Shown here: piece after piece, positions 6,293 to 64,000 of the stretch
Layout: every line of letters begins with the position of its first letter
Numbering within the stretch: the first letter of the stretch is position 1
Virus record (IMG/VR): IMGVR_UViG_3300010396_000009
Span: 1-64,000 of that record
Source: a virus
Direction: 5' to 3' (one strand)
DNA: 64,000 bases
Position numbers and translations under genes: made by a program
The notes under the pieces: model-generated
What the model was told of the DNA's origin: nothing
The model's database searches: none
Seen by the model: only the letters and a program-made list of their open reading frames with translations

Positions 6293-6837
6293 AGCTTGTT
6301 CTCAACTGCCTTGATATGTCTCGGGCTGTCCTCAAGAATGACTCGCCAGTGCCGAGACTCGACTGGCTTGAGTCGAAGATCCTTTACTATGAATGCATAT
6401 CGCTTAGGCGCTATGCACTCAAGTAAAGTGGGATTCGTCACGAAGACCTTCATCGACTCCGCGAAGTCCTCGATGGTCTGTGACGCGGCATACGACCCGA
6501 CTGGAGGCTCATCCATGGCGCCCATGATCAGTGAGTGCCATCGTCGTCGCACGTCGCCCCAGCCCAGGAGATGATTCACGTGATGCCCGAGTTCGTGAGC
6601 CGTTACGCCGAGCACAGTGAGATCCGCGGTGTATCCTGGCCAGGTCCAGCTATAGAGAGATGTACTCGGTGCTTTGCACCTAAGTGCATCTACTATAAGT
6701 TGTCCGAACTTATACACACCATAGTGATTAGGTTTGAGCTTCGGTCGAAAGTCCATGAGCGGCACCTGAAGCTCATTGACTCGGCAGAAGTTCTCGACTG
6801 CTGCTCGAGCCGCGACTGAGTCATGCGGAAGGATCAT
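6289..6837 (-). CDS. zincin-like metallopeptidase
   Basis: HELGH (HExxH) plus a downstream YA...EDFAES motif. Confidence 0.75.
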   Translation of the reverse strand: MILPHDSVAARAAVENFCRVNELQVPLMDFRPKLKPNHYGVYKFGQLIVDALRCKAPSTSLYSWTWPGYTADLTVLGVTAHELGHHVNHLLGWGDVRRRWHSLIMGAMDEPPVGSYAASQTIEDFAESMKVFVTNPTLLECIAPKRYAFIVKDLRLKPVESRHWRVILEDSPRHIKAVENKL

Positions 6838-7412
6838 CTGGTCTCCTTCGCATCCCTGACGTAGCGATCGAACAAGAGCTGCTCGAGCTCATCCAGGCTC
6901 AGGCTCATGTGGGTCTCATTCTCTGTGACCGTATGCCATCGCCCATTGCTGAACCCAATCCAGTAGGAGTTGTCCAGATAAGCTAGTCCCGGACCCTCTA
7001 CGCCATCTCCCAGCGTATCACACTTGCCGAGGTCTGCTAATAATACTCGGGTCCTCCGGAATTCCTCGATGGTCATCGATGGCATTTTACAGGTGAGCAC
7101 TGCTGCCCTGATCTGATCTGTGCTCGTCTCGCCGTCGAGTTCTCGCTCTGCGACTTTATCGACTACCTCGAGGACGAACTCAAGAGCTTTCGTGAAACCC
7201 TCCCAGTAATAGTACTGACCTGATGTCATCGCGGGCCAGCTAACCTTCGCGAACAGCAACCTCGCCTTCTCTTGCCACTTGAGCTTCACTGACTCTGGTA
7301 TCTTGCTCATGACTGATCCTCTTTCTGATGTCATCTGTATAGCGACATCGACAGTGCTCTTGACACCGCCCGCAGATGCGACAAGTATCTGACGTATCGC
7401 ACTCCATTTCAC
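6834..7412 (-). CDS. hypothetical protein (start uncertain)
   Basis: Stop overlaps the next start; lies in a tightly packed operon. Confidence 0.55.
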   Translation of the reverse strand: MKWSAIRQILVASAGGVKSTVDVAIQMTSERGSVMSKIPESVKLKWQEKARLLFAKVSWPAMTSGQYYYWEGFTKALEFVLEVVDKVAERELDGETSTDQIRAAVLTCKMPSMTIEEFRRTRVLLADLGKCDTLGDGVEGPGLAYLDNSYWIGFSNGRWHTVTENETHMSLSLDELEQLLFDRYVRDAKETR

Positions 7413-7436
7413 CCATTCCGTACAGTTGGTAGCATT

Positions 7437-7757
7437 TCATGGGTATTTATCACTTTCTGGGATTTCTAGCTCGATCAGCACCTCGGGCTCGGCGTCCTCT
7501 AGTAAGTGGAGCCTCACCTCGCGGTACAGCGTCTTATCTATCTCTGGCTCGCAGTCATCAGTCCATTCTGAGACGTATCGCGTGACCTGACCATTGCACA
7601 CCGTCGCGGCGTGCTTGAGCTTGAGACCGTAGCACTCCATTGCCTCATTAACCCACTCTTGGCCAGCAAGGTCCTCACCGTTTCTGTAATTGTCCTCCAT
7701 CCATTTGGTGAACTCCTCACCATTCCAAATTATCACCACCAACCTGTGTCTCATCAC
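7437..7757 (-). CDS. acidic hypothetical protein (start near 7754-7757)
   Basis: Packed operon; AAAGG SD before VMRHRLVV. Confidence 0.55.
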   Translation of the reverse strand: MMRHRLVVIIWNGEEFTKWMEDNYRNGEDLAGQEWVNEAMECYGLKLKHAATVCNGQVTRYVSEWTDDCEPEIDKTLYREVRLHLLEDAEPEVLIELEIPESDKYP

Positions 7758-8020
7758 GCACCCTTTCTCATCTTGAGCTTGATTGACCTGCGCTCCACCC
7801 TGATCTCCGGGCCAACGGCCCGGCACAGCTTCACCAGAGTGTAGAATTGCGGAAGTCTTGTCTTGTGACTCCGCAGGTTATACAAGGTCCCGGCGCCGAG
7901 CCGGGCCTCCTTGGACAGCGCATTTATGTTGTCGTACTGCTCTTCAGCCAGGACGAACGCGAGATCAGTCGTCGTGCGCATCTCTGAAAGGTATTGACGG
8001 TCTACGTGTATCTTGCTCAT
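7754..8020 (-). CDS. XRE-like helix-turn-helix protein
   Basis: INALSKEARLGAGTLYNL...PQFYTLVKLCRAVG. Confidence 0.7.
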   Translation of the reverse strand: MSKIHVDRQYLSEMRTTTDLAFVLAEEQYDNINALSKEARLGAGTLYNLRSHKTRLPQFYTLVKLCRAVGPEIRVERRSIKLKMRKGA

Positions 8021-48545: not shown

Positions 48546-49328
48546 TCAGGCAGCTCTAACGGCCTGCAGATCGGCATTAAGAGCTGTCATATCGATGGCG
48601 TTCGGTGCAGTGTTGTTCGTGAACCAACTTGGGGCGATAATCCCATAGGCCTCGTCGATATAGGCCTCCGCCGCTGCCGGAGTCATGTCAATCAGTGCGC
48701 CCCATGTCACGACCTTGAACTTGAGGGCTCCGCCCTGATCTATGTAACCCACGACGATGACAGCGTGACCACCCCATGAGCCCGGTTGATTCTGATGATT
48801 GGACAGCGGGCCATAGACGTCCCACACATTCTTGCCCTGCCATGCAGTCGGAAGCTGAATTCCGATGTAGGAGAACGCAAAGCAATAAATAGTCTGCTGA
48901 AACGTCGGCAAATCCAATTGACTGTTGCCGGCCTCGATAGAAGCGTAGGCTCCGATCTTATAGCCAGACAATCCAATTTTGGCCATGTAATTCATGACGT
49001 CAAGCTCATTACAGCCGTTGTCATTGCGACCAGTGCGCGGATCATAGCCGCTGATCGCCGAATACATGCCAATCACGTCAGCGTCAGACGGTGTAACGAT
49101 CGCGCCGTTATTGCCCGTCCAGACCTGAATACCGTGACCGAACCCAGCACATGTGCAGTCGCCAATACTATCATTGGCCATCGCTCCCCAGCTGATTCCC
49201 GGAGGCGTCCAGTCGACGATCGACGGCGCTGGCGGCAACCCTGGTGTCAAGTACCTTGCGAGCTTAAGCGTTCGCTCATCGATGCGCGGTGCGTGTTTCC
49301 CGAGCTTAACTTTTGTGTGATCAATCAC
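48546..49328 (-). CDS. papain-like (C1-type) cysteine peptidase
   Basis: GDCTCAG catalytic Cys, GGHAV His, VVTWG. Confidence 0.8.
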
Positions 49329-50209
49329 GGCGAGTACTTTCCAATGAGGGCGCGCATCTTATCGACTGTCTTTGGCATCTGCATATCGGCCGGCGTGATG
49401 TTTAGCCAATCTCCGGTCTGCAAGTTCTTTACGACCACAGTGGGGTATCCGCCGTTCGCGGCGATCTGCTTTGCGTAGAGCGTCTTAATCTGTCCGCCGT
49501 CTGATATGCTCTCAGAGTTGTACCACACCCACTTATGACCCTTGCCAAAGATCGAGTCCTTGGGAACCAGCGGACCTGAGCCAACAGCGAAGAATGGATC
49601 ACGGAGAATAGCACCAACAGCCTGCTGCTGGGGCAAATTATTGGTATCAGTGATAATGACAATGAGAAGCTTAGCAGCCGTGACCGGCGGATTAGGTCCT
49701 GGCCCTGGTCCTGGCCCTGGTCCTGGTCCTGGTTCATCACCAGGTGGCCCCTGCGGACCAGGGTCACCCTTAGGCCCCTGCGGTCCAGGTGGACCCTGCG
49801 GTCCAGGTGGACCTTGCGGTCCTGGTTTTCGCGCTGAGTCACTCTCTGTGACGGTAACAGTGCACTCGTTAGAGATTACGTCGCCGCCGTACGCCCTGAC
49901 GATGTACTCTCCCGGCACCATCGACCAGGCTAAGGTCTTAAGCGGCGCAGGGTTAAACTCCTCATCAAGGAGATTCAGATCATCAGAGTCATCTGACTTG
50001 ACCCAGTGAACCTTTGATAGGTTCGTAGTCGCCTCTAACTTGAGAATTTTCCCGGCAGCAATAGTGAGAGTCGATGGCACTACTATCGCAGGTCCGCCAT
50101 TGACGGGTTCGCCTCTGAGGCGACCCTTCGCCTTGATAGAAACCGGAGAATAAGCTCCGGCACAGCCGGTAATTACGAATAGCAGAAGTAGAGAAAGGAC
50201 GCGACTCAT
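49325..50209 (-). CDS. putative lipoprotein with collagen-like and (GP)n linker
   Basis: [10 protein letters not shown] lipobox-like signal, (GPQGPP)n and (GP)n, and a thioredoxin-like YPTVVV C-terminal domain. Confidence 0.7.
49695..49826 (-). repeat. coding tandem repeats (18-nt collagen unit, 12-nt Gly-Pro unit)
   Basis: Repeats of ggtccaggtggaccctgc and ggccctggtcct. Confidence 0.85.
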
Positions 50210-50574
50210 TACTGCCCTCCCTCTTGCTGCTTCGCAAATGGAGTCTCGTTCAAGTGAGTCACCAGAGCCGTATTGCCCTGCGAGTACGCCTCAGACACAG
50301 CCAGCGTAAGCAACTGCCGCAACCTAGGCACAGGCTGTCCGCTCGCTGACTTGGGCGGCTCGGGAAGCGCCTCGGCTGCCTGCTTGACGTTCTGCTTTCC
50401 GATGCGCTCACCGATGGTCTGCAGGATCAGCCCAACGAGCGCTGGGGATAAACCAAGGGCTGTCGTCAGATCAGTATTCTGAGACAACCCAAATGCGACG
50501 GCGTACAGCAAAATGCCCGAGTAGTGCAACACGGTCTGCATGTTCACCATGACCTTCGAGGGAAGCTGGCTCAA
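50209..50574 (-). CDS. two-TM membrane protein (holin-like)
   Basis: Two hydrophobic segments in the N-terminal half. Confidence 0.5.
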
Positions 50575-50828
50575 GATGATGCTCCCAGTACTGTCTCCAG
50601 CTGAGTCAGGAACGCCAGCGTCTTGTCGAAGTTCGCGAGAAACGAGGCGTTTGATTGCGATAAAAAATCGACGACCGCGTTCGCCTTCGCTAGGTCCGCG
50701 CCAATCTTCGGAAACTCTTCCGCGATTGCTGGGCCAAACGAGGTCAGTGCCGTTTTGGCATCGGACAGGACAATCGGCTCGACTGACTCGAATTTTTTCG
50801 CGAGCGCGACAGCATCAGAGAGCTTCAT
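50571..50828 (-). CDS. amphipathic helical hypothetical protein (start 50828)
   Basis: AAAGG SD; stop overlaps the next start. Confidence 0.5.
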   Translation of the reverse strand: MKLSDAVALAKKFESVEPIVLSDAKTALTSFGPAIAEEFPKIGADLAKANAVVDFLSQSNASFLANFDKTLAFLTQLETVLGASS

Positions 50829-50868
50829 AATAGGACCTTTCATAAACAGGGACACGAGTAATATACCG

Positions 50869-51252
50869 TCAGCTCTGCTCACCTTCAGTAGCAGTCATCC
50901 TATTGCTTAGGTTATGCTGCTTCTCCCTGAGGTTCTTGATCTCGGCGTCGTTGCTGTTGATCCTGGTCTCATGAACAGCCAAGTGCTCAGCGTGCTCATT
51001 GACCCGGTCGTTCAGGGTGCTCACGGTATTGGCCAAGGTAGCCACACTGCTCATCGCAGTCACCAGCTCAGCTGGCTTGGTGGTCTCAAGTCTCCTGATC
51101 CTCCATGAGAGACTCTTGAGTCGTATGTGCGTGATCTTTGTGCTGCTCCACATCTTGGCCATCCAGATGGCGAGCGGTATAGCAAAGGCGGAGCCTATTG
51201 TCACCATTAATCCCGCGAGCGTTAGCCACTCCGTTAGCCCTATCGCGCCCAT
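50869..51252 (-). CDS. single-TM coiled-coil membrane protein
   Basis: N-terminal TM followed by heptad repeats; AGGAG SD. Confidence 0.6.
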   Translation of the reverse strand: MGAIGLTEWLTLAGLMVTIGSAFAIPLAIWMAKMWSSTKITHIRLKSLSWRIRRLETTKPAELVTAMSSVATLANTVSTLNDRVNEHAEHLAVHETRINSNDAEIKNLREKQHNLSNRMTATEGEQS

Positions 51253-51266
51253 CTATGATGCTCCTA

Positions 51267-52664
51267 TTATATCGAGTTAATACTAGCATGCCCGTTTCTC
51301 TCAGCTCCGTTTCTCTTGGCCATGAGATATCGTTGCTTGCGACTGAGGCTAGCTCGCATGACGGCCTGACCAGGCTGTTTCTGGATGCCCTTCACCTCAG
51401 GCGCGCCGAGCTGCTCTCGAATAGCAGCCCAGTCTAGGTGAGCCTGCTCTTGAGCCTGCCCAGCCTCTGTTCCCCAGTGCTTCTCATAGAGTCCCTTGAT
51501 GAACGCTCGCTTCTCATCGACGAGCGGCGAAGCCGTGACCTTGACCTTGTCCACGTATCGAGGACCGTAATTCAGCTCAAGAAGAACATTGACCACCTGG
51601 CTATTCAGCAGGGCCATGATCTCCCTGTGAGTCATCTCCAGGTTATCGACCACGAAGTCAGCGTGTGCTTCGGCCTCTGCCTTGGTGCCGAATTGACCCT
51701 CCTGAATAGCTCGCTCAGGAAAGCCAAAGCCGCGGGCCTTTAGCACATCATGATACTTAAGGCGCTCGACGAAAGCGCCCTGCTGAGTCTGCGGTGATTG
51801 GAGCTCAACTCGCCATGCCGCGTTAGCTGGGTTGAAGTTATTCATATCATCCACCTGACCAAGGATAGAGCTCGGCACGGCGACCATGCCAGATGACTGC
51901 AGCGACTTGAGAATATTCGCCGCGATCACAGCATTATCTGTCTCACCAGTGACCGCTCCGGTGACGGGATCTTTCTGTATAGAGGTCCCCATTGGGTAAT
52001 AGACGATCCAGTGTGACCCTGCGATCTTGACGTCAAATCTCCTGGCCCCGTCATCGCACTCGAGCCAAGAGTCATAGGGTCTCTCGCACCTGCGCAAGAG
52101 CGGCTCGCTGTACCAGTTCGTGCCCTCAGCATCACGGTATAAGCAGGCGAAGTCGCCCCTGTACAGATAGACCGGGTTTGGGTTCAACACATTGTGAATT
52201 GCGCTGTTTCGCACGCCGACCATATTGCCATGATAGTCGACGAGAATAGTCGTAAGATCCTGAAGCAGTCCCTTAAATTTCTTCACGTAGAACATACCAG
52301 TGTCTTCGTGCTGCTCCTTCACTACTTCATACGGCTGCCAGCCGAAGTCCAGAAATCCTCGCAGAGCGTCGCGCAGAAACTGAATTCGAAAAGGGACAGT
52401 CGATTGCTTGATGCAGAGCTCGGCATCCTTGAACTCCTCATGCTCGCACTCGACTGTCCACTCGGAGCCAAGCAAGGCAGCCTGATATATGTCGCGAAGC
52501 AGTCCCAGCGTTGGATCGCGGCGCATGAGACGCACTTTGCGAAACCACTGAGAGGTGACTACCGGGTTGAGGGCCAGCACACCAGGTGGGACAAACCCAT
52601 CGGGACCAGCGCCGACGAGAATCTGGGCTACGGTCCTGGCTTGCTTTGGTTCTTTGTCAGCCAC
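51267..52664 (-). CDS. portal protein (Mu gp29/DUF935-like)
   Basis: Size and synteny; DALRGFLDFGWQPYEVV, EPLLR..Y..W and G..AEAEAH. Confidence 0.85.
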   Translation of the reverse strand: MADKEPKQARTVAQILVGAGPDGFVPPGVLALNPVVTSQWFRKVRLMRRDPTLGLLRDIYQAALLGSEWTVECEHEEFKDAELCIKQSTVPFRIQFLRDALRGFLDFGWQPYEVVKEQHEDTGMFYVKKFKGLLQDLTTILVDYHGNMVGVRNSAIHNVLNPNPVYLYRGDFACLYRDAEGTNWYSEPLLRRCERPYDSWLECDDGARRFDVKIAGSHWIVYYPMGTSIQKDPVTGAVTGETDNAVIAANILKSLQSSGMVAVPSSILGQVDDMNNFNPANAAWRVELQSPQTQQGAFVERLKYHDVLKARGFGFPERAIQEGQFGTKAEAEAHADFVVDNLEMTHREIMALLNSQVVNVLLELNYGPRYVDKVKVTASPLVDEKRAFIKGLYEKHWGTEAGQAQEQAHLDWAAIREQLGAPEVKGIQKQPGQAVMRASLSRKQRYLMAKRNGAERNGHASINSI

Positions 52665-54034
52665 TAGTCACCCTTGATCTCATGACCCTGGTTAAACGTC
52701 GCCGTTCCCACCTCGTGGGCGCCCCACTCCTGAGCTGCCCAGTGCTTGATCAGCTGCATCGTGTGCTCATCGCTGCACCGCACCGCTATGACGACCTTCG
52801 GCACGTCGAGGATCTTTCGAACGGCGACCTGAAGATCAACTCCGCCACGAGCAAATCTCTTCACGTCGCGAGAGAATTTCATACCGCGCTTCTCTGGGAG
52901 CGTGAACACGGCATTAAGGCCCATCGCCTCTCTTTGATGAGGTTTCACACGAGCGGTAGGCTCTAAAGGAGACATGTCACCTCTTGAGTTGAGCGCCCTG
53001 GCCTTGCTGCGCTTGGCGACGCCGTCGATAGAGTGCAGAACGGAGACATTATCGGTCTCGACGTTCACGAGCACCCACTGTCGCCTATCCTCTGGGTCTG
53101 GATTTGGATAGCGCTGAAGCTGCACCACCAGTTTGATGTCAGGGAAACCGTACTTCAGGTCCATTATCGAGTCGCGCATCTCGGCCGCATTGCCGGCGGG
53201 GACCACGTAGTGGGCCCTCGGAAGAACCTGGCGCTGGTGCTTGGCTGCACGAGCCTTGGCGAACCTATCCTTGGGCTCACCAGCTAGTGCTACTGAGCCC
53301 GGCAAGCTTTTTTTTCGCGCTGCTTTTGAGTCTTGAGAACCAAGAACGACGTTATCAACTAGGCTCAGCGAGAAGCTCGCGAATCGCCCTTGAGCGTCCC
53401 TCTCGTACTGCCGCTGGGAGACGTGGGTCTTCCCTTGGCGGTCGAGCGCCTCGTATCTCGTGCGAACCCCTGCATGATGATGCCAAAGCCTCTTGTGCTT
53501 TGCCGCGATTGCCTTGGTCCCCGGAAAAGTGCTCTTCTTGAACTTCTCGTAGCCAGAGCGGTGAACGTCCTCGTGCGTCTTGTGATGCTTAATGATATCC
53601 TTCACCGAGATCATGTTGTTCTCGGAGATCGGTGGAAGGTCGTTGTCTCGCCGCACCTGATTGCCGTATCCTCTGCTAAGATCGCTCTTTGTCCTCTTGA
53701 AGAGCCTGCCGCTCACCAGGTCCTTGGTGTACTGGATAGGGTGCATGACGGCCTGCTTCGTGTTCTTGATCGTCGCGGATACGAGCGGAGACACATCGCA
53801 CGCTACACCCTCCATGGAGAGCGCGTAGAGCTGCTTCCTGGTCAGTGGGCGACCCTGCTCAGCGAGCGAAAGGTAATACGAGGCGGCTCGGCTGATCGGC
53901 TTTCGTCGGCGACCTTTTCGCTTTACCTTGTAGGGCAATTTTTTCCCCTTCGGAGTCTTTTTCTCGAACTCGTGGGCGATCTCGGGATGATGAATGTGCA
54001 TGTAGGCTCGCTGCGCCTGAGATACAAAAGGCAT
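52664..54034 (-). CDS. modular basic head-associated protein (start MPFVSQ at 54034)
   Basis: TAATG coupling to TerL, an MPFxSQAQR N-terminal module, an RDAQGRF motif and two C-terminal alpha/beta modules. Confidence 0.7.
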   Translation of the reverse strand: MPFVSQAQRAYMHIHHPEIAHEFEKKTPKGKKLPYKVKRKGRRRKPISRAASYYLSLAEQGRPLTRKQLYALSMEGVACDVSPLVSATIKNTKQAVMHPIQYTKDLVSGRLFKRTKSDLSRGYGNQVRRDNDLPPISENNMISVKDIIKHHKTHEDVHRSGYEKFKKSTFPGTKAIAAKHKRLWHHHAGVRTRYEALDRQGKTHVSQRQYERDAQGRFASFSLSLVDNVVLGSQDSKAARKKSLPGSVALAGEPKDRFAKARAAKHQRQVLPRAHYVVPAGNAAEMRDSIMDLKYGFPDIKLVVQLQRYPNPDPEDRRQWVLVNVETDNVSVLHSIDGVAKRSKARALNSRGDMSPLEPTARVKPHQREAMGLNAVFTLPEKRGMKFSRDVKRFARGGVDLQVAVRKILDVPKVVIAVRCSDEHTMQLIKHWAAQEWGAHEVGTATFNQGHEIKGD

Positions 54035-55344
54035 TATGCCGCTCCCACCAAAACACTCGGAACCACGTCGCTCGTAGGAACAACTGGCCACACTCGATGA
54101 ATAATATACCCAAGGGCGTCAGTGATGTGACCAATGTCATCATGATCATCGACGTCGCGACTGCCGGGCTCATATGCCCTGGTCACCAGATCATGAAGCA
54201 GCCATTTGCACCGGGGATCAACGAAGACTCGTCGCTCTCCCAGGGCGTTGCAGAAGGACGCATTGCATGCCGAGAACCGCTCATGAATCGCGGGGTTCTT
54301 CGCAGGATAGAAGATCTTCTTTCTAAGGAAACGCTGATCATTCTGGATATGTGCATAGTCGCTCTGAACAGCGCTAGTCTTCCTGGCCTTGGATGACGCA
54401 TCGCCGAAGAAGATCCAGCCTGATTGGTGCACACTTGGCCTATTATAGCGCTTATCTAATTCATTTAACGCAGCCGGCGTGTTAGTGTTGCGAATCCAGA
54501 TCTCGTCGATGACATTGAGCTTCGGCCTAGACGTCGTGTGCTGCTGGCAGATGACCCACGCCATAGGGTCTACGTTGAAGTCAGATCCGATGATCAGTGG
54601 CTTACTTGGGTCATACTTTGCTGATTCTATGTTAAGCTTCTCATCGAACGCGTAGAACACCAGCCCAGATGTTCCCTGCCAGATGGCCCCGAACTGCTCG
54701 TCAAAATCCTTCTGATCAAGACTTCTGGCGGCGTCAGCTATTTCCTCCTCGCTCAGGATGTCAGCGCTTGGCCAGGTATAGCTCTCGTATCTCGGGCCAA
54801 GCTTTCCAGAACCGTAGTCCTCCCAGCACTTCTTGAACTCGGAGGCACCTGGTCCAAACCGCTTGGGAACACCGATACGCCAACACCAGCCAGTTTTATG
54901 AGATAACGTCGGGCGAACCGAGCGATCGAACGAGCCGGGCCATTGATCGCACGATTCATCGATGACCCCGCCGTCCCACTGAACGCCCTCGATTCTAGCC
55001 GGCTCATTCATGCCGACGAGGAAGAGCTTAGATCCGAAGCGAGTCTTGATCGTCAGATCACTCTCGCGTATGTCATCAGGCGAGGCTATCCACTCCTTTG
55101 GAATCAGGGCCTTGATCTTCTCCCAGGCGACTAATTTAGCCTGCGCCCTAGTGGGATACGCCAGGAAATAGATCGGATCAGGCCAGGGCTTCTTAACCGG
55201 GAGAAACCTTACCAGTCGTCGCCTAGATAGCTCCGTCTTGCCAGAGCCTCGGCCGCAAGCCAGCGCGACGAAGCGCGCCTTGGTGCGCCACACCCTAGTC
55301 TGAGCCGGGTGATAGCGAAGCGGAAACCAAGCCGGGGTGAGCAT
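54034..55344 (-). CDS. terL: terminase large subunit
   Basis: GRGSGKT Walker A, VIDE Walker B, GSDFN and HITDALGY nuclease motifs. Confidence 0.95.
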   Translation of the reverse strand: MLTPAWFPLRYHPAQTRVWRTKARFVALACGRGSGKTELSRRRLVRFLPVKKPWPDPIYFLAYPTRAQAKLVAWEKIKALIPKEWIASPDDIRESDLTIKTRFGSKLFLVGMNEPARIEGVQWDGGVIDESCDQWPGSFDRSVRPTLSHKTGWCWRIGVPKRFGPGASEFKKCWEDYGSGKLGPRYESYTWPSADILSEEEIADAARSLDQKDFDEQFGAIWQGTSGLVFYAFDEKLNIESAKYDPSKPLIIGSDFNVDPMAWVICQQHTTSRPKLNVIDEIWIRNTNTPAALNELDKRYNRPSVHQSGWIFFGDASSKARKTSAVQSDYAHIQNDQRFLRKKIFYPAKNPAIHERFSACNASFCNALGERRVFVDPRCKWLLHDLVTRAYEPGSRDVDDHDDIGHITDALGYIIHRVWPVVPTSDVVPSVLVGAA

Positions 55345-55805
55345 TACTTCGCCTTAAGTTGCTCTCTTAAGGCTTTGTACCGCTTCATCCGTTCAGGTCG
55401 CACAGGGTGCAGTGACTGCAGATCCTGGATCGCCAAGGCGACCTCGCGACCAACGCCTCGCCCGGGATCAAGCATCAGGTCATGGCTCATCTTGATGAGG
55501 TCCTTGACCACGTGAACTCCCTCGGTCGGAGCGAACATCTCACCGAAGAAAGAGTCAAAGATGAGCTGCTGAAACTGCAGGACCTTTTCCCTGCGCCCGG
55601 TCACGGCGATCTTGCAGTCGGCGTAAAGCTTCGCATCCAGGCCGTGCTCCTTGGCTAGTTTGAGCGCCGGCTCGATGTTGTCCCGCTGATTCACGGAGAT
55701 GATCTTCGTGAACTGATCATCGGCGCTGTCCATGGCCAGGGAGAAGTCCCGGCGCACCTGACCACGGCGAAGCATTCGATTAGCTGCTTTGAGCATGGGA
55801 TTCAT
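55344..55805 (-). CDS. hypothetical protein with one copy of the repeat module
   Basis: IISVNQRDNIEPALKLAKEHGLDAKLYADCKIAVTG; coupled to TerL. Confidence 0.65.
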   Translation of the reverse strand: MNPMLKAANRMLRRGQVRRDFSLAMDSADDQFTKIISVNQRDNIEPALKLAKEHGLDAKLYADCKIAVTGRREKVLQFQQLIFDSFFGEMFAPTEGVHVVKDLIKMSHDLMLDPGRGVGREVALAIQDLQSLHPVRPERMKRYKALREQLKAK

Positions 55806-58800
55806 TCTGAAGCACCTTTACGTTAATGGCGTTATTCTGCTCAGCGATTTTCTTTACCAATTCGGGATCGCTGGTAAGCACCAGGACCCGGTCGTTGTCC
55901 TTCTTCTGACCCTTGATTCCGTTCTCCCTGAGCTCCGTCAAGAATTTACCCAGAAGGTATGCGTTGGCCGCGAACGCTACGACCATGTAGGTCAGATGGG
56001 CGGCTCCCTTGACTGCTGCAGGGAAAGCTAGCTCATGCGAAGCAGCTGCCTCCTTGACCAATTTTTTAACTCTCGCGGTCCTGGCTCGTCGCTTGGCGAT
56101 CTTCTCAATTTTCTCTGGTGAGCCCTGCGCCACGACCTCGCCGTTAGGCTTTACTTTTGCCAAGATTCCGCTGGAGATCAGGTCAGCCGCGACCGTAGTC
56201 GCCACGTACGGCCCCACATCCTTGATAAGCCACCAGCCGACACCCTTCAGGAACGGCAGGGCTGCGATGGCGGGGAAGGCCATTTCTTTGCCCTTCTTTT
56301 TCTTCATCTCCTTGATTTTGCCATGGAGCGGCTTCTCGAGGTTAGTCACCGGGGGTTTCTTCTTGGGTTTCTGGACAGGGACTCCGCCGTTTGACACCAC
56401 AGCTGCTCGCTGCTGAGCCTTCGGCATTACCTTTGAGGCGGGCTTAGGCGCAGGTTTAGGCGCAGCGATAGGGGCCGGCGCAGCTCGCCTCACAGGCCGC
56501 TTCTTTGTAACTCCGCTCTTAAGAATCTTGCCTCGAAAAGCCGCGACGACGGCGTCTAATAAGCGCATCAGGGCGGCTCTCACCACCACGTGCACCCTGC
56601 CGTAGCCATCGGCGAACGAGTCAAAGATCCCGGCCTTGGCGAGCCATCGCATGGCCGCGGTCGCCCCGACGATACCGCCAAAGTCAATGATCAGCTCATG
56701 AAACACGTCGCCAATCGGTTTCTCGTGGAAGTTAGGATCAGTGCGCCGCGGGATCGGACCGGTTTCTTCATGTGGCGTGAACGCGCTGGGTTGCACCCCT
56801 GGACCAGCGCCGGGCGCCTGGTGCTTAGATCCAAATGTTCCAGTGGCCGTCGGATGCCTGGTGATAATTCCGCCGGCGGCAAATTCATTGACGGCAGGCT
56901 CGATGTCAGAGCCCTTGACACCCAGCACGACGATCTTCTTACCCTTCATGTACAGGTTCTGGAGCGGCTTGAAGTGATACTTGTTCACCAGCTGCTGGTA
57001 CGCCGCCTTGGCCGAGGCGACGCTCTTGCAGTCAAACTCCCAATTCATCGGGGACTCTTCGGCCATGAATGAGGCGGCCTTGACCTGGCCGCTGTGCTCG
57101 TCAATGATCTCCTTGACCTGATTCTCCTTGCTCGGGTCAGTGGTCTGGGCGAAGATCTTGTTGCCGATCACCTTCGCCTGGACACCCAGCTTCTTGATCA
57201 GCTGATACGCCCCGACTGCCAGAGCCCCGGTGGCGAACGTGGCGGTGATCGCCAAGAGCGCCTCACCCTTGGTCCTGGGGATGAAGCCCTTCACACCCTG
57301 CCGGGATGCCTCCTTGACAGCGCCCGGCAGGGCGCGGGCTATTCTCCCGACCTTGCCGGGCATAGAGCCTACTGTTTCTTTTGCATGCTTGGCTCCCTTG
57401 CCAAGCTTTTGCAGCTTGACCCTGGTCTCGTGCGGCAGCATGTCATGCACCATACTAGAGGGCAGGAACTCGGTGCCCGGAAGCACCATTCGCACCCCGG
57501 CCTCGAATTTTCTGTCCATCTCCTTAAAGATTCGCCCCATGATCGCGTCCGTTTTCTCTGTGGCCTTGCACAGGATGCTCTTTTCGCCGTTGCGACGAGC
57601 GGCGAGTCCCTTCGATCTGAGATAGGCGAGGCCAGCGGCGACCGCGAGCGAATTGGCGAAGACAAACTCGACCACTTCTGCCGGACCAAGACCCATCGCA
57701 TATGACATCGCCACGTCCACCCTGGCCCCGCATCGCTGAGCGTAGCGACGCACAGCCTCCTGTCCTCGGTCGCCGTAGGCCCGAATCTTGATCTTTCGCT
57801 TCTGCATGCCGCGACCGAGCGAGGAGAGGATCTCGCAGCCGAAGCCGCGCAATTTTTGAGCGAGCCACCCAACGTACTTCGGACTCACGGACGAGAGCAC
57901 GAATTCGTAAGCCCGACCCATGTCCATCTGGAACGACGCCGCGACCTGAGATGAATTAGTCGGCTCCATCTTGCCGCCATACTTTTTGGTGATCTCCTTC
58001 ACCTCGGTCTTCTTGTCGCCGCGAAGCTTCTTCACCAAGACATAGGCGCCGTACGCGGCAGCCGAGATACCAGCGGCTGTCAGGGCAACAAGGGCTGCAG
58101 ACGCCGCAGCATTGGCACCGAACTTTAGAAGCATGGAGCCGATCGCCATATCAGCGGCGTCTTGGCCGGACTTAAATGCCTTTGCTCTTGTGTTCTCGTG
58201 AGCGAACTTCATCACACCGACCTGGCCGAAGTCGGGCGGGATCGGCGAGCCCTTGAACTCCTGCACGCACTTGTTGATAACTCGGCGCTCTCCAGTAGCG
58301 GTGAGCTTATGTGAGTGAGGAAACGGTCGCTTCACCTTGACACCGTTCTTGCGGAGCCACAGAGACGCCTCGTCTGCCAGGTCCTCGCCCTCAAAGTAGA
58401 GCTGCATTGCCTCTACGCCGCTGTTCCGATCCTTGGCGCCGGGCTCTGTGGGTTCACTTGAGTTTGGCCTGTACGCACTCTGCTGCTGGGCTGGCATCTG
58501 CATAGGAGGAATCACCACTCCGTTTCCGTTCACCCCTGAGGGATAATTGCGTCGCATCATCTGCTTCTCATCATAAAGCGCCATCATTGCGTCAACCATG
58601 CTCATCCCCCTCATCCCGCCGTAGTTAAATGGTCGGCCGACATCGCGCATCTCATGGATCTTCTTGCTCGGCCGAAAATGCACATAGAAAGTCTCGGGCT
58701 TGAAGACGTCGTCCTTGGTCCTGGGATTCTTCTTCCACGCAGATTTTCTTCTGCGCATCTCAAAGATGCCGAAGTTCCGGAGCTCAACTCGCTGACCGTT

Positions 58801-59979
58801 TAATAGCGCCAGCGCGATCTTATCAAGGACAGCAGAGACAACTGGCCTTGTGCGCGCCTGTGCAAAGCCGAGCTCTTCAGAGATAGCAAGGTACAAAGCG
58901 CGCTTAGTCAAGGTCGAGCCAGCGACGGAAACGTCGAAGTCCATGCTAATCGGCGTAAGCGATGCAGCGTACCTCAAGCCAGGTGGTTCAACGACCTTAT
59001 AGTGAATAATGCCCATCTTATGAAGCTCTTGCATCACCTTGTCATGAATGAGAAGATGCACCACGGAGGGACTAGCATGCGGATCTTTTTTCCACATCTC
59101 AGTCGCTATTGGCTTCAGATGTTTCTTGTACAGCTTTGTTATCAGCTTAGCGATTTTCTCTGAATCTTGAGGATAGTTAGGTCCAGGTTTGGCCAGGTGA
59201 GAGACACCCTTATGATTAACTGCCTCGATCGACCTAACTCCGGGCCAGCCGACGAAAACTTGAATATCCTGGGTGCTGAATGTGCCGCCGGCTCTCTTAG
59301 AGTTACTGGGGTGATTATGAATTATCGCGTACTTATTCTTCTTGTCTATGGCGCCAGGAACACTTAAGTGTACGCGTCCCTTGCTGCCGTCGAACCTATG
59401 AATCACGTCTCCCTCATGATTCACTATGACCGAGTGTTCCTTTTCGCTTTTCTTGCCCTTTCTGAGCACGCTTTGCCTAGCTTTGTTTGCACCCTCAGTA
59501 AAGTGATTCTTGAATCCACTAATAGAGTGCTCAAATGCGAACGCCGGCCACTGTCCAGTCATGTTCCCGGTCATGTCTCTTCGCCTGTCGGGAAACCTCA
59601 TATTTCTCTTATAGGCTCTCTTGCGAGCCTGGATCGCCGGGTCAGGGTTCTCGATGGGGCTTATGGCGCTCCCAGTGCAGCAGGGTTCGCCAGTGTTCTG
59701 CACAGTCGAGTCTATAACATGCGTCACCTTCCCCTTATACGCCTTAACAGCCTGGCGAAGAAATGAGATAAAGGTCTCATGCGAGTGCATGTATCGCGGG
59801 GCACCTTCAGAACGATCCGGCATACGAATGTGAAGCTCGAGCTCGCGCTCAGAGACCCTGTCCATTTTCAGGGGAGCCGTACCAGCGATCTTAGCCTGCA
59901 TCCAGTCGATGAACTGCTTAAGAGCGCCCGGTGACCTGAATATCATGGTCAGGTGAATCGGCAGCTCGTGAGTCTTCAT
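55780..59979 (-). CDS. 1399-aa modular protein: JAB/MPN-like domain, HU/IHF domain and about 10 small alpha/beta repeats
   Basis: HNHPS...FSTQD; LTKRAL...VELRNFGIFE.RRRK...KNPRT...FRPSK; repeated F..A...L...G modules. Confidence 0.85.
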   Translation of the reverse strand: MKTHELPIHLTMIFRSPGALKQFIDWMQAKIAGTAPLKMDRVSERELELHIRMPDRSEGAPRYMHSHETFISFLRQAVKAYKGKVTHVIDSTVQNTGEPCCTGSAISPIENPDPAIQARKRAYKRNMRFPDRRRDMTGNMTGQWPAFAFEHSISGFKNHFTEGANKARQSVLRKGKKSEKEHSVIVNHEGDVIHRFDGSKGRVHLSVPGAIDKKNKYAIIHNHPSNSKRAGGTFSTQDIQVFVGWPGVRSIEAVNHKGVSHLAKPGPNYPQDSEKIAKLITKLYKKHLKPIATEMWKKDPHASPSVVHLLIHDKVMQELHKMGIIHYKVVEPPGLRYAASLTPISMDFDVSVAGSTLTKRALYLAISEELGFAQARTRPVVSAVLDKIALALLNGQRVELRNFGIFEMRRRKSAWKKNPRTKDDVFKPETFYVHFRPSKKIHEMRDVGRPFNYGGMRGMSMVDAMMALYDEKQMMRRNYPSGVNGNGVVIPPMQMPAQQQSAYRPNSSEPTEPGAKDRNSGVEAMQLYFEGEDLADEASLWLRKNGVKVKRPFPHSHKLTATGERRVINKCVQEFKGSPIPPDFGQVGVMKFAHENTRAKAFKSGQDAADMAIGSMLLKFGANAAASAALVALTAAGISAAAYGAYVLVKKLRGDKKTEVKEITKKYGGKMEPTNSSQVAASFQMDMGRAYEFVLSSVSPKYVGWLAQKLRGFGCEILSSLGRGMQKRKIKIRAYGDRGQEAVRRYAQRCGARVDVAMSYAMGLGPAEVVEFVFANSLAVAAGLAYLRSKGLAARRNGEKSILCKATEKTDAIMGRIFKEMDRKFEAGVRMVLPGTEFLPSSMVHDMLPHETRVKLQKLGKGAKHAKETVGSMPGKVGRIARALPGAVKEASRQGVKGFIPRTKGEALLAITATFATGALAVGAYQLIKKLGVQAKVIGNKIFAQTTDPSKENQVKEIIDEHSGQVKAASFMAEESPMNWEFDCKSVASAKAAYQQLVNKYHFKPLQNLYMKGKKIVVLGVKGSDIEPAVNEFAAGGIITRHPTATGTFGSKHQAPGAGPGVQPSAFTPHEETGPIPRRTDPNFHEKPIGDVFHELIIDFGGIVGATAAMRWLAKAGIFDSFADGYGRVHVVVRAALMRLLDAVVAAFRGKILKSGVTKKRPVRRAAPAPIAAPKPAPKPASKVMPKAQQRAAVVSNGGVPVQKPKKKPPVTNLEKPLHGKIKEMKKKKGKEMAFPAIAALPFLKGVGWWLIKDVGPYVATTVAADLISSGILAKVKPNGEVVAQGSPEKIEKIAKRRARTARVKKLVKEAAASHELAFPAAVKGAAHLTYMVVAFAANAYLLGKFLTELRENGIKGQKKDNDRVLVLTSDPELVKKIAEQNNAINVKVLQNESHAQSS

Positions 59980-59984
59980 AAGTG

Positions 59985-60352
59985 GAATATACCTAAGTGA
60001 CAGAGACTAGTGAACGCCTAAGCAATTCACTAGTCTCTGGAACTCAGCCGGTGTTAGCTCATGTACAAAGAGCCGCGGCTCAATTACTTTGCTCTAGACA
60101 AGAGGTCAGGGAATTTTATCGACCTTCGCTTCACCCTCCCGGCATCGTGAGTCAAGTGTATAAAATAGCCTCTCGGCGGATCAGAGGGCCGAGGCCTGGT
60201 GGCCCTTCCATGAATTACCGCTTTGGTTCTTTCACCGGGCGCCCATCCTACCAGCAGATGAGAACTAGTGACCTGGATGATTAGGTCGCTACCCAGCGAG
60301 GGATTTACTGTTTTACCGGCTCTCGCCTTTACCGGTCGGGCAACGTCTGTTC
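59985..60352 (-). ncRNA. candidate structured non-coding RNA
   Basis: About 370-nt gap in a tightly packed operon, with a series of hairpins, minus-strand G-U pairs, GAGA tetraloops and a perfect 14-bp stem at 60001-60039. Confidence 0.5.
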
Positions 60353-60751
60353 CTAACTCTGCGCTAGCACCATCCTTACCTTGCACGCGGCTGTGTTGCT
60401 CCTTCCGTAAATCGCGACGCTGGGAGCCCACGGAAACAGCGCAGGGAGCCCGGCATTGCCGTTGCTTCCCGGATAGAGCCGGGCAAACGGGTAAAAAGTC
60501 GCCGAGACAACTAATCCAAGGTCACAGTAGTTCGCCTGGTCCAAGTTCTGGAACTTGACCATCCCCTCCTGACCGCTCGTCACGGCGCCGATCGGAATCA
60601 GAGTTCCGCCGGACGTCGTGGGAATAGAGACGATGTCCGGGTGCGACACAGGACCGTTCGCCTGATTGGCCTGCATCGACGTGGGCCAGGACTCGATCAG
60701 AGGCGGATTGTTGATCTGCAGGTTCGCTGTTATCGTAAGCTCGTTGGCCAC
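60353..60751 (-). CDS. hypothetical beta-rich (putative structural) protein
   Basis: GGAGG SD and a GTG start abutting the upstream stop. Confidence 0.65.
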   Translation of the reverse strand: MANELTITANLQINNPPLIESWPTSMQANQANGPVSHPDIVSIPTTSGGTLIPIGAVTSGQEGMVKFQNLDQANYCDLGLVVSATFYPFARLYPGSNGNAGLPALFPWAPSVAIYGRSNTAACKVRMVLAQS

Positions 60752-61111
60752 TTATACCTCCTGTATAGAAAAATCTAACTGATGAAACGCAGAGTCCTTC
60801 GAGCCGCGGCCGCGCCCCTGAGCTTTCTTGCCTCCAGGGAGAAGCCTCTGTCGTAACATCCGAGTTACTTCTCGGATGTTACTCCTGGTCATCAGCTTAT
60901 AGGTGACCCTGAGCGTACTATCTGATTGTATCTTCCCAGCGAAGCCCATGCTCGCCAATATACCGGCGATCTGCTTGTCCTGAGCAGGGTCTTCCGTAAA
61001 CCAGGATATGACATAGCTGTGATCAGTGGGTGCATACCGACGACCGGACGTGTCATGGGCCTGGTATGGCTCGTACTTGTAGGGCTCGCCGGGTATTGAC
61101 TTTCGCGGCAT
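60752..61111 (-). CDS. hypothetical protein with one copy of the repeat module
   Basis: ISWFTEDPAQDKQIAGILASMGFAGKIQSDSTLRVTY. Confidence 0.6.
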   Translation of the reverse strand: MPRKSIPGEPYKYEPYQAHDTSGRRYAPTDHSYVISWFTEDPAQDKQIAGILASMGFAGKIQSDSTLRVTYKLMTRSNIREVTRMLRQRLLPGGKKAQGRGRGSKDSAFHQLDFSIQEV

Positions 61112-61474
61112 TTATTTCTTCGGCTGTGATGATGCCAGCTTAGATTCGATGAGAGCCAGGATCTGCTGCTTCTGGTCCTCGGTGAAGCCCTTGGGCGCGG
61201 GTGCAGCGGTGACTTCTGGCCAGTGCCAGCTCATTGGACGCTGCGCGGTCTGATCCTCTGGGATCCCCTGAATGCCGGGCGACGGTCCGCCCATTGGGTC
61301 CCAAAGTCCGATATTAAGCAATGTACCGTCCTTGGCCGGGTCAGAGCGATGGGCTCCCGGCGGATGAACGTATGTGACTATCGCAGGAACATGTTCCGGG
61401 CTGTTGGGGTACAGGCGAACGTGGATGATGCGACCGATTGTGGGAGTTTGAGACATTGACATAGGACCTTTCAA
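61112..61474 (-). CDS. hypothetical phage protein
   Basis: PTIGRIIH...PAIVT...WHWP pattern. Confidence 0.7.
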   Translation of the reverse strand: MKGPMSMSQTPTIGRIIHVRLYPNSPEHVPAIVTYVHPPGAHRSDPAKDGTLLNIGLWDPMGGPSPGIQGIPEDQTAQRPMSWHWPEVTAAPAPKGFTEDQKQQILALIESKLASSQPKK

Positions 61475-61920
61475 TTATAGAGATCTACTACTCGAGTACC
61501 TACTACGTGCTTTCCATCTGGGCCGCGTATATCAAACTCTATCTTCTTGGTGTGGCTATGAGCCCAGTGACGGATAAAAGACTCTGCGTACTGCATCCCG
61601 GACGCTGTGCACTCTACGTAGATGCTCTCATCCACCGTTAAGTCATATATTCTTATGAAGCTGTGAACGAAGGCCTCGCTCATGGCAAAGCCCCGCTTAT
61701 CGAAATTTTTTGGTGTCTTCTTGGGCAGCTTGATAAGACCCATCTTTATCAGAGTCTCCCCATGATCATCACCATGACAGCTGATCCAGCTGCCTGATGG
61801 AGTTAACCATCCTGAGTCAGTGCCGATGCTCACACCGCTAAGCGATACCTCACGCTGCTTAATAGCAGACATTACTCTGCGATGCTTATAATACTGCTGA
61901 TGCCGCGAGAAGCCAGACAT
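61471..61920 (-). CDS. hypothetical protein
   Basis: GWLTPSG....H motif; packed operon. Confidence 0.6.
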   Translation of the reverse strand: MSGFSRHQQYYKHRRVMSAIKQREVSLSGVSIGTDSGWLTPSGSWISCHGDDHGETLIKMGLIKLPKKTPKNFDKRGFAMSEAFVHSFIRIYDLTVDESIYVECTASGMQYAESFIRHWAHSHTKKIEFDIRGPDGKHVVGTRVVDLYN

Positions 61921-61922
61921 GC

Positions 61923-62876
61923 TTAAAGTGTTACTCCGGTTACTCGACGAACGACGTGGCTGTAGGACATCTTATGATCACAGCTATTACAGTTCGGCAA
62001 ATCGCGCCTCTTGTCCTGCAGATGGGCGCGGTAGCGAAACATGATCTCTGAGTTCCATACCTGATCAATAGTTTGATGATTCAAATCACCGATGAATACC
62101 GCATCGTCCTGTGTCTGGTCAATCGCGCAGCAGAGCGGCACTCGCCCATCATATTGGATGACGAGATGTCGATGCGGCCTGGCGCAGTGCGTCTGCGGGG
62201 CGCTTGCGGCGTGTCCCTTTGAGTGGAAGCTGTCGAACGAGTGAGCGTTCTCTGGGCGATCACTGCGCATGTCACTGATGCAAAGAAAGCGACCGCGAGA
62301 ATTATGACGGCGATACTTATGATCAGTACGACACCACAGATCATGAGCTCGCCCAGTGCTGTCAATGCTCTCATACAGTTCCTTCTGCTTGATCCCGGCA
62401 TCACCAAGATCATAGATGTTTAGGTTGATCACGTTGACGCCAGAGTCAAAGATATCGGTGATCCGGTCAACCATCGCTATTATTTGGTCTCGCGGGCCTC
62501 TGGTGATCGTGTCTCCGTTCGTCGAGACATAGATAGTGCAGTCAGGGCAAGCTCGGCGAAGACGCATAGCCCAGCTAGAATCATCAGACGAAAACAGTCG
62601 CTTGTCAAGAGTAGGCTCGTTTAGTAAAAACAATTGGATGCATCCATCGAACTGATGCTCGCGCAGCTGATCACAGATGCTCGTGAACAGCTCCTCGCTC
62701 ATCAATTTTTGATTGGGCCTGGGAATGTCACCACCGAATCCGCTGATGGGACAGAAACTGCAGCGTCGATTGCAGTAGGCGCTCGTCTCAATACTGAAGC
62801 GATTTGGCCAGGGATAGAACTCCCCTTTTGAGAAGTCCACCGGCGGCTCGTGCATCACGTCGAAAAATGAAGCCAT
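61923..62876 (-). CDS. radical SAM/SPASM protein
   Basis: CNRRCSFC and NEP; SPASM-type C..P.....IQYDG.V..CC...GDL...W...CNSC. Confidence 0.9.
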   Translation of the reverse strand: MASFFDVMHEPPVDFSKGEFYPWPNRFSIETSAYCNRRCSFCPISGFGGDIPRPNQKLMSEELFTSICDQLREHQFDGCIQLFLLNEPTLDKRLFSSDDSSWAMRLRRACPDCTIYVSTNGDTITRGPRDQIIAMVDRITDIFDSGVNVINLNIYDLGDAGIKQKELYESIDSTGRAHDLWCRTDHKYRRHNSRGRFLCISDMRSDRPENAHSFDSFHSKGHAASAPQTHCARPHRHLVIQYDGRVPLCCAIDQTQDDAVFIGDLNHQTIDQVWNSEIMFRYRAHLQDKRRDLPNCNSCDHKMSYSHVVRRVTGVTL

Positions 62877-63028
62877 TACTTCCCCAGAAGGATCAGCACC
62901 CCGGCAGATAAGGCTAGGAGTCCCATGATAATGTGCTCGGCCTCGAACCGAAAGTTAGTCAACGACAAGATCCCAGTCAAGATCAGCCATACGCACAGAA
63001 GAATAACACCAAATGATCTGTTGCTCAT
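62876..63028 (-). CDS. small two-TM membrane protein (start 63028)
   Basis: GVILLCVWLILTGIL...IMGLLALSAGVLILLGK. Confidence 0.65.
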   Translation of the reverse strand: MSNRSFGVILLCVWLILTGILSLTNFRFEAEHIIMGLLALSAGVLILLGK

Positions 63029-63047
63029 GATAACTCCATTATAATGA

Positions 63048-63767
63048 TTATTCTTCGCTTTGTACAGCTGCTTCCTCTGGATTAGAGGGAATCGTCTCAT
63101 CCATGGCGATGGCATCTCTGTCAGGCGTAAGCGATGTGCCCTCCACGTCGATGCCCTTCACAGAGAGCTTGGTCCGGATCAGCTCCTCGAATTCCTTCAC
63201 GCGATAGTCGTCGCCCCACACCTCCCAGGCCGAGTGAGCGATGGCGGAGATCACGGATGTCATGGCCTGGGCGAAGGCGCCGTTGAGCCGGGTCTTCAGC
63301 TCCTGGATGTCACCGGCTTTGCCGGCCATGTCGGCGACCTCACGAAGCTTCGATGACATCATTTGGCCAGTGAGGAGCTTCATCTCTGTGATCTTGGCCT
63401 CAGTTTCAGGAGTGACAGGCATCTCCAGTACCTTGGCGTACTCGGCCACGGCGTCCCCGGCAGTTATGCGCATCAGGGACAATTCTTCGGTGAGGTCCAG
63501 GTTGTCGAGCGAGCCCATCTCCTCAACGACCTCCTCCATTTTCGCCGCCAGCGTGGGGCGAAGTGACTTAAGATAGAATCGAGACATGTATCTTCCCCTG
63601 TGCCCCTTATGGTCCGCCGAGTACATGTGCTGGCTGCATCTGGGCGGATCAGAGTCAGCCTCGGATTCATAGCGGCACCGGCGCCCCTTCAGAGAAGACG
63701 TCACCATGGCGGTGCAGCGCTCGACTGTGCTGTAGCGATTGTGAAGGGTCCTGGTTACGTCGCTCAT
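63048..63767 (-). CDS. putative terminase small subunit
   Basis: N-terminal C..(R)C..C..H knuckle followed by a helical body; heads the packaging operon. Confidence 0.5.
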   Translation of the reverse strand: MSDVTRTLHNRYSTVERCTAMVTSSLKGRRCRYESEADSDPPRCSQHMYSADHKGHRGRYMSRFYLKSLRPTLAAKMEEVVEEMGSLDNLDLTEELSLMRITAGDAVAEYAKVLEMPVTPETEAKITEMKLLTGQMMSSKLREVADMAGKAGDIQELKTRLNGAFAQAMTSVISAIAHSAWEVWGDDYRVKEFEELIRTKLSVKGIDVEGTSLTPDRDAIAMDETIPSNPEEAAVQSEE

Positions 63768-63776
63768 CTTATTTCC

Positions 63777-64000
63777 CTAGGCTAAGCACAGCTCCCTGGC
63801 TAATTCAAGAGCCTCCTGATACCGCGTCTTCATCTGCCCTATTGTAAGGGGTGGATCGTAGTGATCTGCGATTTCTCGCAAGGTGCAGTTCTGCAGTAGG
63901 TGCCACCTGAGGATGTTAGCCGCCTCCTTAGGTAATGAGTCCAGGACAAGCGACACCTCAGCTATGGTCTCAGCTGTCTTAACTGTGGCGCCGTCGTCTC
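63777..64000 (-). CDS. sigma-70 region 4-like HTH regulator (3' part only)
   Basis: Manual translation VLDSLPKEAANILRWHLLQNCTLREIADHY...GQMKTRYQEALELAR*. Confidence 0.75.
   Translation of the reverse strand, partial: DDGATVKTAETIAEVSLVLDSLPKEAANILRWHLLQNCTLREIADHYDPPLTIGQMKTRYQEALELARELCLA

Follow-up and report, generated by a model that had tools for sequence, protein, structure and literature searches.

An uncultured phage encodes a giant basic protein in which an HU/IHF domain precedes an array of eight, perhaps nine, ancient modules of predicted ferredoxin-like fold

The DNA analysed here (the window) is the first 64 kb, positions 1 to 64,000, of the 75,231-bp contig of IMG/VR virus record IMGVR_UViG_3300010396_000009. 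On its minus strand, at 55780..59979, lies a giant gene whose product, P0001, has 1399 amino acids (aa), a net charge of +95 and an isoelectric point (pI) of 10.0, as determined from the list of open reading frames (ORFs), the translation and its composition. An N-terminal domain opens P0001 and is followed by an insert of 220 residues, a bona fide HU/IHF domain and a module array. Residues 521-1399 are eight, perhaps nine, anciently duplicated domains of ~65 residues, all members of one previously unnamed family, and structure prediction supports for them a ferredoxin-like β-α-β-β-α-β fold of the generic class. The reading that we favour, at about an even chance, is that P0001 is a basic DNA-associated cargo protein of the polyvalent class, with HU and a ferredoxin-like module array, possibly cut at short motifs found at domain boundaries. 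The parts of the protein are listed below. Scores in bits come from the leave-out hidden Markov models (HMMs) described further on, and AlphaFold 2 (AF2) secondary structure is given as strand (E) and helix (H) with its predicted local distance difference test (pLDDT) values.

59605..59979, minus strand: N-terminal domain (aa 1-125), 39% identical to its counterpart in the relative P0002
58945..59604, minus strand: insert (aa 126-345), not present in any relative
58651..58911, minus strand: HU/IHF DNA-bending domain (aa 357-443), Pfam Bac_DNA_binding PF00216, E 8.3e-17
58225..58419, minus strand: module M1 (aa 521-585), AF2 E-H-E-E-H at pLDDT 67-86, HMM 7.6 bits
57943..58152, minus strand: module M2 (aa 610-679), Ala-rich with a hydrophobic first half, HMM 27.6 bits
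57925..57942, minus strand: boundary motif AASFQM (aa 680-685), from a regular-expression scan; similar sites at aa 757-762, 968-973, 1232-1237 and 1312-1321
57694..57924, minus strand: module M3 (aa 686-762), doubtful copy, fitting the pattern in the MAFFT alignment alone
57472..57684, minus strand: module M4 (aa 766-836), AF2 E-H-E-E-H at low pLDDT, HMM 9.0 bits
57064..57267, minus strand: module M5 (aa 905-972), hydrophobic first half, HMM 18.2 bits, modelled singly
56842..57060, minus strand: module M6 (aa 974-1046), AF2 E-H-E-E-H-E at pLDDT 64-78, profile support marginal
56500..56712, minus strand: module M7 (aa 1090-1160), AF2 E-H-E-E-H-E at pLDDT 52-61, HMM 13.8 bits
56251..56499, minus strand: Pro/Lys/Ala-rich basic linker (aa 1161-1243), net charge +17, pI 11.3
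56044..56250, minus strand: module M8 (aa 1244-1312), AF2 H-H-E-E-H at low pLDDT, HMM 10.5 bits
55783..56004, minus strand: module M9 (aa 1326-1399, the C terminus), AF2 H-E-E-H-E at pLDDT 57-71, HMM 14.1 bits

An earlier note, made from the letters of the window, had proposed about ten divergent copies of an unnamed module in this gene. The six peptides that it quoted are all found in P0001, at aa 525-551, 617-644, 771-798, 912-939, 1097-1119 and 1333-1359. In a self dot-plot of P0001 with a 25-residue window, the maximum was 44 compared with 30-44 in ten shuffles, and BLAST of the protein against itself gave nothing usable. Since the dot-plot is barely above shuffles, the repeat cannot be demonstrated from P0001 alone, and relatives are needed. 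Iterative HMM searches started from single modules wandered off to spurious ORFs, among them the giant gene's own antisense frame, and were therefore replaced by leave-out and cross-clade tests. Alignment by MAFFT of 32 candidate modules from P0001 and its relatives displays a shared pattern. A hydrophobic strand with F at its end leads through a loop of small residues into an amphipathic helix in which A and L are conserved; after a Gly come a basic hairpin, with Gly at its turn, and the second helix, and G-G-K precedes the final strand. Within modules, only hydrophobic positions of the core and three glycines in turns are conserved, and no catalytic or metal-binding signature was seen. Some of the linkers are rich in Pro, Lys and Ala.

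For the leave-out test, the HMM was rebuilt for each P0001 module without that module and its orthologues, with 500 shuffles of each module and 1000 random segments of this phage's other proteins as controls. The scores of M1, M2, M4, M5, M7, M8 and M9 listed above were equalled by 0 of 500 shuffles and 0 of 1000 segments. M6 (3.9 bits), M3 (3.1 bits) and an N-terminal unit (1.8 bits) were marginal. A second HMM, built solely from modules of the other clade (P0004, P0005 and P0009-P0011), scores M2, M4, M5 and M7 higher than any of 400 locally shuffled decoys, with 25.8 bits for M2 and 12.7 bits for M4. Comparison of orthogroup profiles by hhalign ties together the same seven modules as the leave-out test, with 99% for M8-M9, 94% for M2-M5, 91% for M2-M4 and 83% for M1-M7, and with weaker pairs at 77% (M5-M7), 70% (M2-M7) and 59% (M2-M9). 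Profile matching among the modules, one of the two points on which the earlier note had staked its proposal, joins seven of them in both tests. No hhalign link was found for M3 or the N-terminal unit, and M6 reached M5 at 70% only when pooled with positional equivalents whose orthology to M6 could not be shown. It is the AlphaFold secondary structure alone that places M6 in the family, and the pattern alone that places M3 there. The tally is eight well-supported copies (seven by HMM and hhalign, M6 by AF2), one doubtful copy (M3) and one marginal one (the N-terminal unit), in place of the proposed ten or so with more in three neighbours. The additional copy claimed at the N terminus is only marginal, its score being reached by 34 of the 1000 background segments. 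The copies claimed in three neighbouring genes received no profile support: the products of 153 and 119 aa scored -1.2 and -0.6 bits, respectively, and a search with the core family HMM found none of the three at E ≤ 20. Among ~1000 ORFs, this core HMM picks out this protein family only. The module paralogues are 14-26% identical, no repeat was detected in the giant gene at the DNA level, as the earlier note had said, and module order is conserved with P0002, all of which agrees with its view that the amplification is old.

No family in Pfam, PHROGs, NCBIfam or among PDB sequences corresponds to the module, which thus deserves the label "unnamed" that it was first given. In Pfam scans of 18 modules at E ≤ 10, no family was matched consistently, and the ESM Atlas had no usable match for aa 521-1399. 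A profile search of PDB sequences with the modules gave no significant match, only E of about 0.02 to the β1-α1 part of RBMS proteins. An AF2 model of aa 501-1399, made with a five-sequence alignment, was poor overall (pLDDT 40). It nevertheless contains E-H-E-E-H(-E) units at M1, M4, M6 and M7 and partial ones at M5, M8 and M9; M2, drawn as helices, was uninformative, and M3 appeared as low-confidence helices. The best Foldseek matches of this long model were engineered tandem ferredoxin folds, tandem ACT proteins, HMA domains and RRM pairs. M5 was also modelled singly, with an alignment of 18 paralogues (the nine window modules and nine from contig L005, described below). This model has a pLDDT of 90.8 and a predicted template modelling score of 0.77, the pLDDT having risen from about 50 once the paralogues served as alignment, and it forms one compact α+β domain of predicted β-α-β-β-α-β topology (E7-12, H16-28, E32-36, E39-44, H47-59 and E63-69).

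When the M5 model was compared with the PDB by Foldseek, only generic ferredoxin-like folds were found, with de novo designs top-ranked. VIA-align against ~48,000 chains likewise gave designed ferredoxin folds as the top matches (Z 9.0, root mean square deviation 1.9 Å over 67 residues), with CutA, HMA, PII-like proteins and peptidase propeptides at Z 7-8, and a BFVD search returned many small uncharacterised phage proteins. The modules thus resemble small ferredoxin-like domains (HMA, ACT, PII-like/CutA, SPOR/RRM-like) in predicted topology and size, at Z 7-9 and about 2 Å over 60-70 residues. Apart from a single SPOR match given below, they have no sequence-profile match to any of these domains, and they lack both a CxxC in the β1-α1 loop and RNP motifs. 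As candidates, HMA was rejected with CxxC in 0 of 9 modules and no Pfam HMA match at E ≤ 10; ACT with no ACT family among the matches of the 18 modules at that threshold, the likeness to tandem ACT proteins being at fold level only; and RRM with no RRM family in the Pfam scan of the modules. SPOR (PF05036) matched 1 of 18 modules at E 0.024 and none of the others. Since de novo designs head the structural matches, only the generic fold can be named, and for an unnamed family with generic fold matches no specific functional family can be assigned. To this extent the ferredoxin-like fold suggested in the earlier note is borne out by the models, all matches by Foldseek and VIA-align (designs, HMA, ACT pairs, PII-like, CutA) being of that class.

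The HU/IHF domain is the sole part of P0001 recognised by Pfam, PHROGs and NCBIfam. It scores 61.7 bits against PF00216, for which the gathering cut-off is 22.4, and covers profile positions 1-87 of 90. It is thus a full domain, in which the arm proline (NPRT) and the FRPSK strand are visible. Matches to the NCBIfam IHF alpha and beta models (E about 1e-11 to 3e-13) are under those models' cut-offs, and the match to the HU-HIG fusion family (PF18291), at 24.9 bits, is below the Pfam cut-off of 26.2. Unlike members of the HU/IHF family, which are free dimer subunits of ~90 residues, this domain sits in the middle of a 1399-residue protein. In the insert that precedes it, visual inspection finds an H-x-H-x11-S-x2-D string reminiscent of JAB/RadC metal sites. 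A JAB/RadC peptidase-like domain was rejected, since the combination of a profile match with an E...HxH...S..D site was not found and Pfam was empty at E ≤ 5; the Atlas gives a weak lead only, with Prok-JAB in 13% of one cluster (score 0.84).

Only four relatives turned up when 1.8 billion representatives were searched exhaustively with phmmer: P0002, with 1832 aa; a fragment of 115 aa; and P0004 and P0005, both of 622 aa. A search with the module profile, of the kind that the earlier note had suggested for viral databases, added new members when aimed at longer proteins among 5.8 billion, namely P0009, P0010 (1276 aa) and P0011 (1513 aa), and it yielded no stand-alone modules among proteins of 25-128 aa. 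The family thus has seven proteins among the billions searched, and phage GenBank records gave HU-domain matches only. In all five complete proteins, HU is at or near the N terminus and is followed by 6-9 detectable modules. Module order is kept between the orthologues P0001 and P0002, with M3 missing and the M8 type doubled in P0002, which points to an old array of fair stability in which modules are sometimes gained or lost. A ParB-like region seen by eye in P0002 was not confirmed by Pfam. At their C termini, P0009, P0010 and P0011 share a tail of ~30 residues after the last boundary motif (Q-P-L ... F-E-K-T ... P), which may be a targeting or docking peptide; P0001 and P0002 are without it.

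The short motif found at domain boundaries consists of a small residue, S or M, then F/M/Y, any residue and a hydrophobic residue, as in AASFQM, AMSYAM, AASFMA, SASFGF and GASMAF. A regular-expression scan found 5, 5, 7 and 7 boundary sites in P0001, P0002, P0009 and P0011, respectively, compared with about 0.3 in shuffles. In P0001 alone, the 5 sites compare with 0.36 expected in shuffles, and 0 lie inside module cores; overall, 27 of 31 sites are outside cores. By eye, a site follows HU in 5 of 5 complete proteins, even where the next domain is no module. Among other head proteins, only the 475-aa product described below has two loose matches (FASFSL at aa 237 and EAMGL at aa 388), so that no sharing of the motif with proteins of capsid assembly is established. 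A radical SAM/SPASM-domain enzyme (window 61923-62876, minus strand) is encoded some 2 kb upstream of the giant gene and on its strand. Such enzymes often modify short repeated peptide motifs, which makes a connection with the boundary motif conceivable.

The last ~123 bases of the contig (75109-75231) duplicate window positions 1-123, which indicates a phage genome of ~75.1 kb assembled as a closed circle. Nearly all genes in the window are on the minus strand. On the same strand, 3' of the giant gene, come in order a 153-aa ORF, the large terminase (TerL), a 475-aa ORF and a Mu-type portal, with MuF and a lambda-E-type major capsid protein farther downstream. TerL has a weak Terminase_6N match and clear TerL relatives. 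The giant gene is thus encoded beside virion genes, which is the portal-terminase setting that characterises genes for polyvalent proteins. The 475-aa product (window 52664-54091, minus strand), between TerL and portal, is basic and matches no family, and its N terminus overlaps the end of TerL. Another protein, of 294 aa (window 49325-50209, minus strand), has a collagen-like Gly-Pro-rich run (GPQGPPGP..., then PGPGPGPG), through which alone it resembles tail-fibre PHROGs. No Rfam family was found in window 50000-64000, and promoter and terminator scans were not usefully above shuffles.

Genomic context is known for one relative only, P0009, which is encoded on IMG/VR contig L005; no loci of P0002 and P0005 were found in viral or metagenome contigs. 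The TerL and portal of L005 are 69% and 57% identical to those of the window, and the P0009 gene (L005:2559-5795) lies just upstream of a small ORF, TerL, an ORF of ~500 aa and portal, in the same order as in the window. The gene that precedes it (L005:1341-2549, plus strand) encodes an ADP-ribosyltransferase exoenzyme domain (Pfam E 2e-06), a type of domain typical of packaged phage effectors. TerL of L005 (6540-7845, plus strand) is split into two ORFs, 6540-7274 and 7324-7845, matching residues 2-239 and 258-434 of the window TerL; a frameshift, a sequencing error or a small insertion could account for this.

It has been proposed that polyvalent phage proteins enter the capsid, undergo processing in some cases and accompany the DNA on delivery (Iyer, Burroughs, Anand, de Souza & Aravind 2017, PMC5512222). 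Like them, P0001 is very large, multi-domain and encoded beside portal-terminase head genes, and its family is mosaic in domain content, including novel uncharacterised domains. Unlike them, it has no confirmed enzymatic domain or zincin-like peptidase, and it is mostly one small domain repeated 8-9 times with HU as constant partner; a term search of that article found mention of neither IHF nor ferredoxin. On our favoured reading, P0001 would be expressed late and loaded in the capsid together with the genome, whose delivery it would probably share. The HU domain would bend or anchor DNA, and the basic ferredoxin-like modules and linkers would serve as further low-specificity contact units for nucleic acid or protein. 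More speculatively, the boundary motif may mark cleavage or recognition sites at which the polypeptide is cut into small proteins. In giant phages such as SPN3US, packaged head proteins are reported to undergo proteolytic maturation at multiple sites (PMC10052503), and the short recurrent boundary motif of P0001 is similar in kind. P0001 differs in the motif itself, in that no prohead protease was recognised and in that its cleavage is hypothetical. In the strongest version, P0001 would be a true tailed-phage polyprotein, a 150-kDa precursor in which cuts at about ten conserved sites of the boundary motif release an HU protein together with eight or nine small, basic proteins of ferredoxin-like fold, and these would travel with the genome into the host as a set of DNA-coating or anti-defence factors. 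We consider this rather unlikely.

Several points weigh against the favoured reading. The motif pattern was written only after looking at these proteins, it belongs to strand β4 in the M5 model and so may be structural, and no protease was recognised among the phage's proteins; for these reasons cleavage is worded throughout as a hypothesis. Both cleavage and the presence of P0001 in virions are what we infer, not what we observed. Besides HU, P0001 offers one novel repeated domain and two unassigned regions where a polyvalent protein has several disparate activities, and, as no enzymatic domain was confirmed, the term "polyvalent" in its strict sense is not shown to apply. Loci whose TerL is 44-56% identical to that of the window have no such gene in the upstream flank (10 kb in L002-L004, ~4.7 kb in L001 and ~2.1 kb in L006). 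As to the fold, AF2 can over-predict idealised ferredoxin folds, and the alignment used for M5 consisted of paralogues that we chose ourselves.

Four other explanations were weighed. That there is no true repeat, the likeness being compositional (Ala-rich amphipathic segments) on top of a common β-α-β pattern, would fit a single-sequence dot-plot hardly above shuffles and several iterative HMM links just a few bits over decoys. Yet locally shuffled, composition-preserving decoys never attain the scores of the seven modules, seven hhalign pairs at 59-99% connect them, the family HMM is selective among ~1000 ORFs, and the jump in pLDDT from about 50 to 91 came with the paralogue alignment. Chance resemblance is very unlikely for these seven modules, and we regard this explanation as highly improbable. 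P0001 might instead be a membrane-active ejection protein, in which the Ala/Gly-rich stretches at aa 624-642, 769-787 and 907-925 are transmembrane or glycine-zipper helices of a DNA conduit across the envelope, not the strand and helix of a globular domain. The stretches reach Kyte-Doolittle 19-residue peaks of 1.65-1.76, and the low-confidence long AF2 model draws M2 as helices and M5 as a helix-hairpin-helix without the first strand. These peaks are only borderline, however, in a protein that is highly charged overall; with the paralogue alignment, the M5 stretch folds as strand and helix in a compact domain at pLDDT >90, and the modules with a hydrophobic stretch can be aligned from end to end with those that have none and are linked to them by profiles. 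A conduit of this kind therefore seems quite unlikely.

The remaining two explanations accept the array and assign it another role. A non-virion DNA-organising factor, an IHF-like helper in the infected cell, would bend or scaffold DNA for terminase or replication, with the modules as spacers or oligomerisation units. The HU/IHF domain and the position of the giant gene immediately upstream of terminase genes in two phages speak for it, and IHF is known to assist lambda terminase at cos. Nevertheless, 1399 residues with nine extra domains exceed what a bending factor needs, relatives carry mosaic insertions typical of cargo or polyvalent proteins, and the next gene upstream in L005 encodes the ADP-ribosyltransferase-domain protein, so we think such a helper unlikely. 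We find it equally improbable that the modules form an anti-defence effector array, the second option of the earlier note, with each module a separate small inhibitor that is directed at a host defence protein and freed by cleavage after injection. Module surfaces have diverged strongly around a conserved core, boundary motifs recur, and BFVD holds many stand-alone small ferredoxin-like phage proteins without known function, all as this idea would have it. Against that, P0001 and P0002 keep module order and identity, unlike the rapid turnover of an arms race, and the search at 25-128 aa returned no stand-alone relatives.

Taken together, these findings define a new family of small domains that Pfam, PHROGs and NCBIfam do not contain. 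Its architecture is fixed, with HU and an array of 6-10 modules encoded upstream of terminase, and it occurs in uncultured phages of a rare group. Should the boundary motif mark sites of cleavage, P0001 would exemplify a polyprotein strategy unusual for tailed phages, by which numerous small DNA-associated proteins could be delivered compactly along with the genome. Otherwise, the family would still be a clean example of paralogues serving as the alignment with which to fold an orphan repeat.

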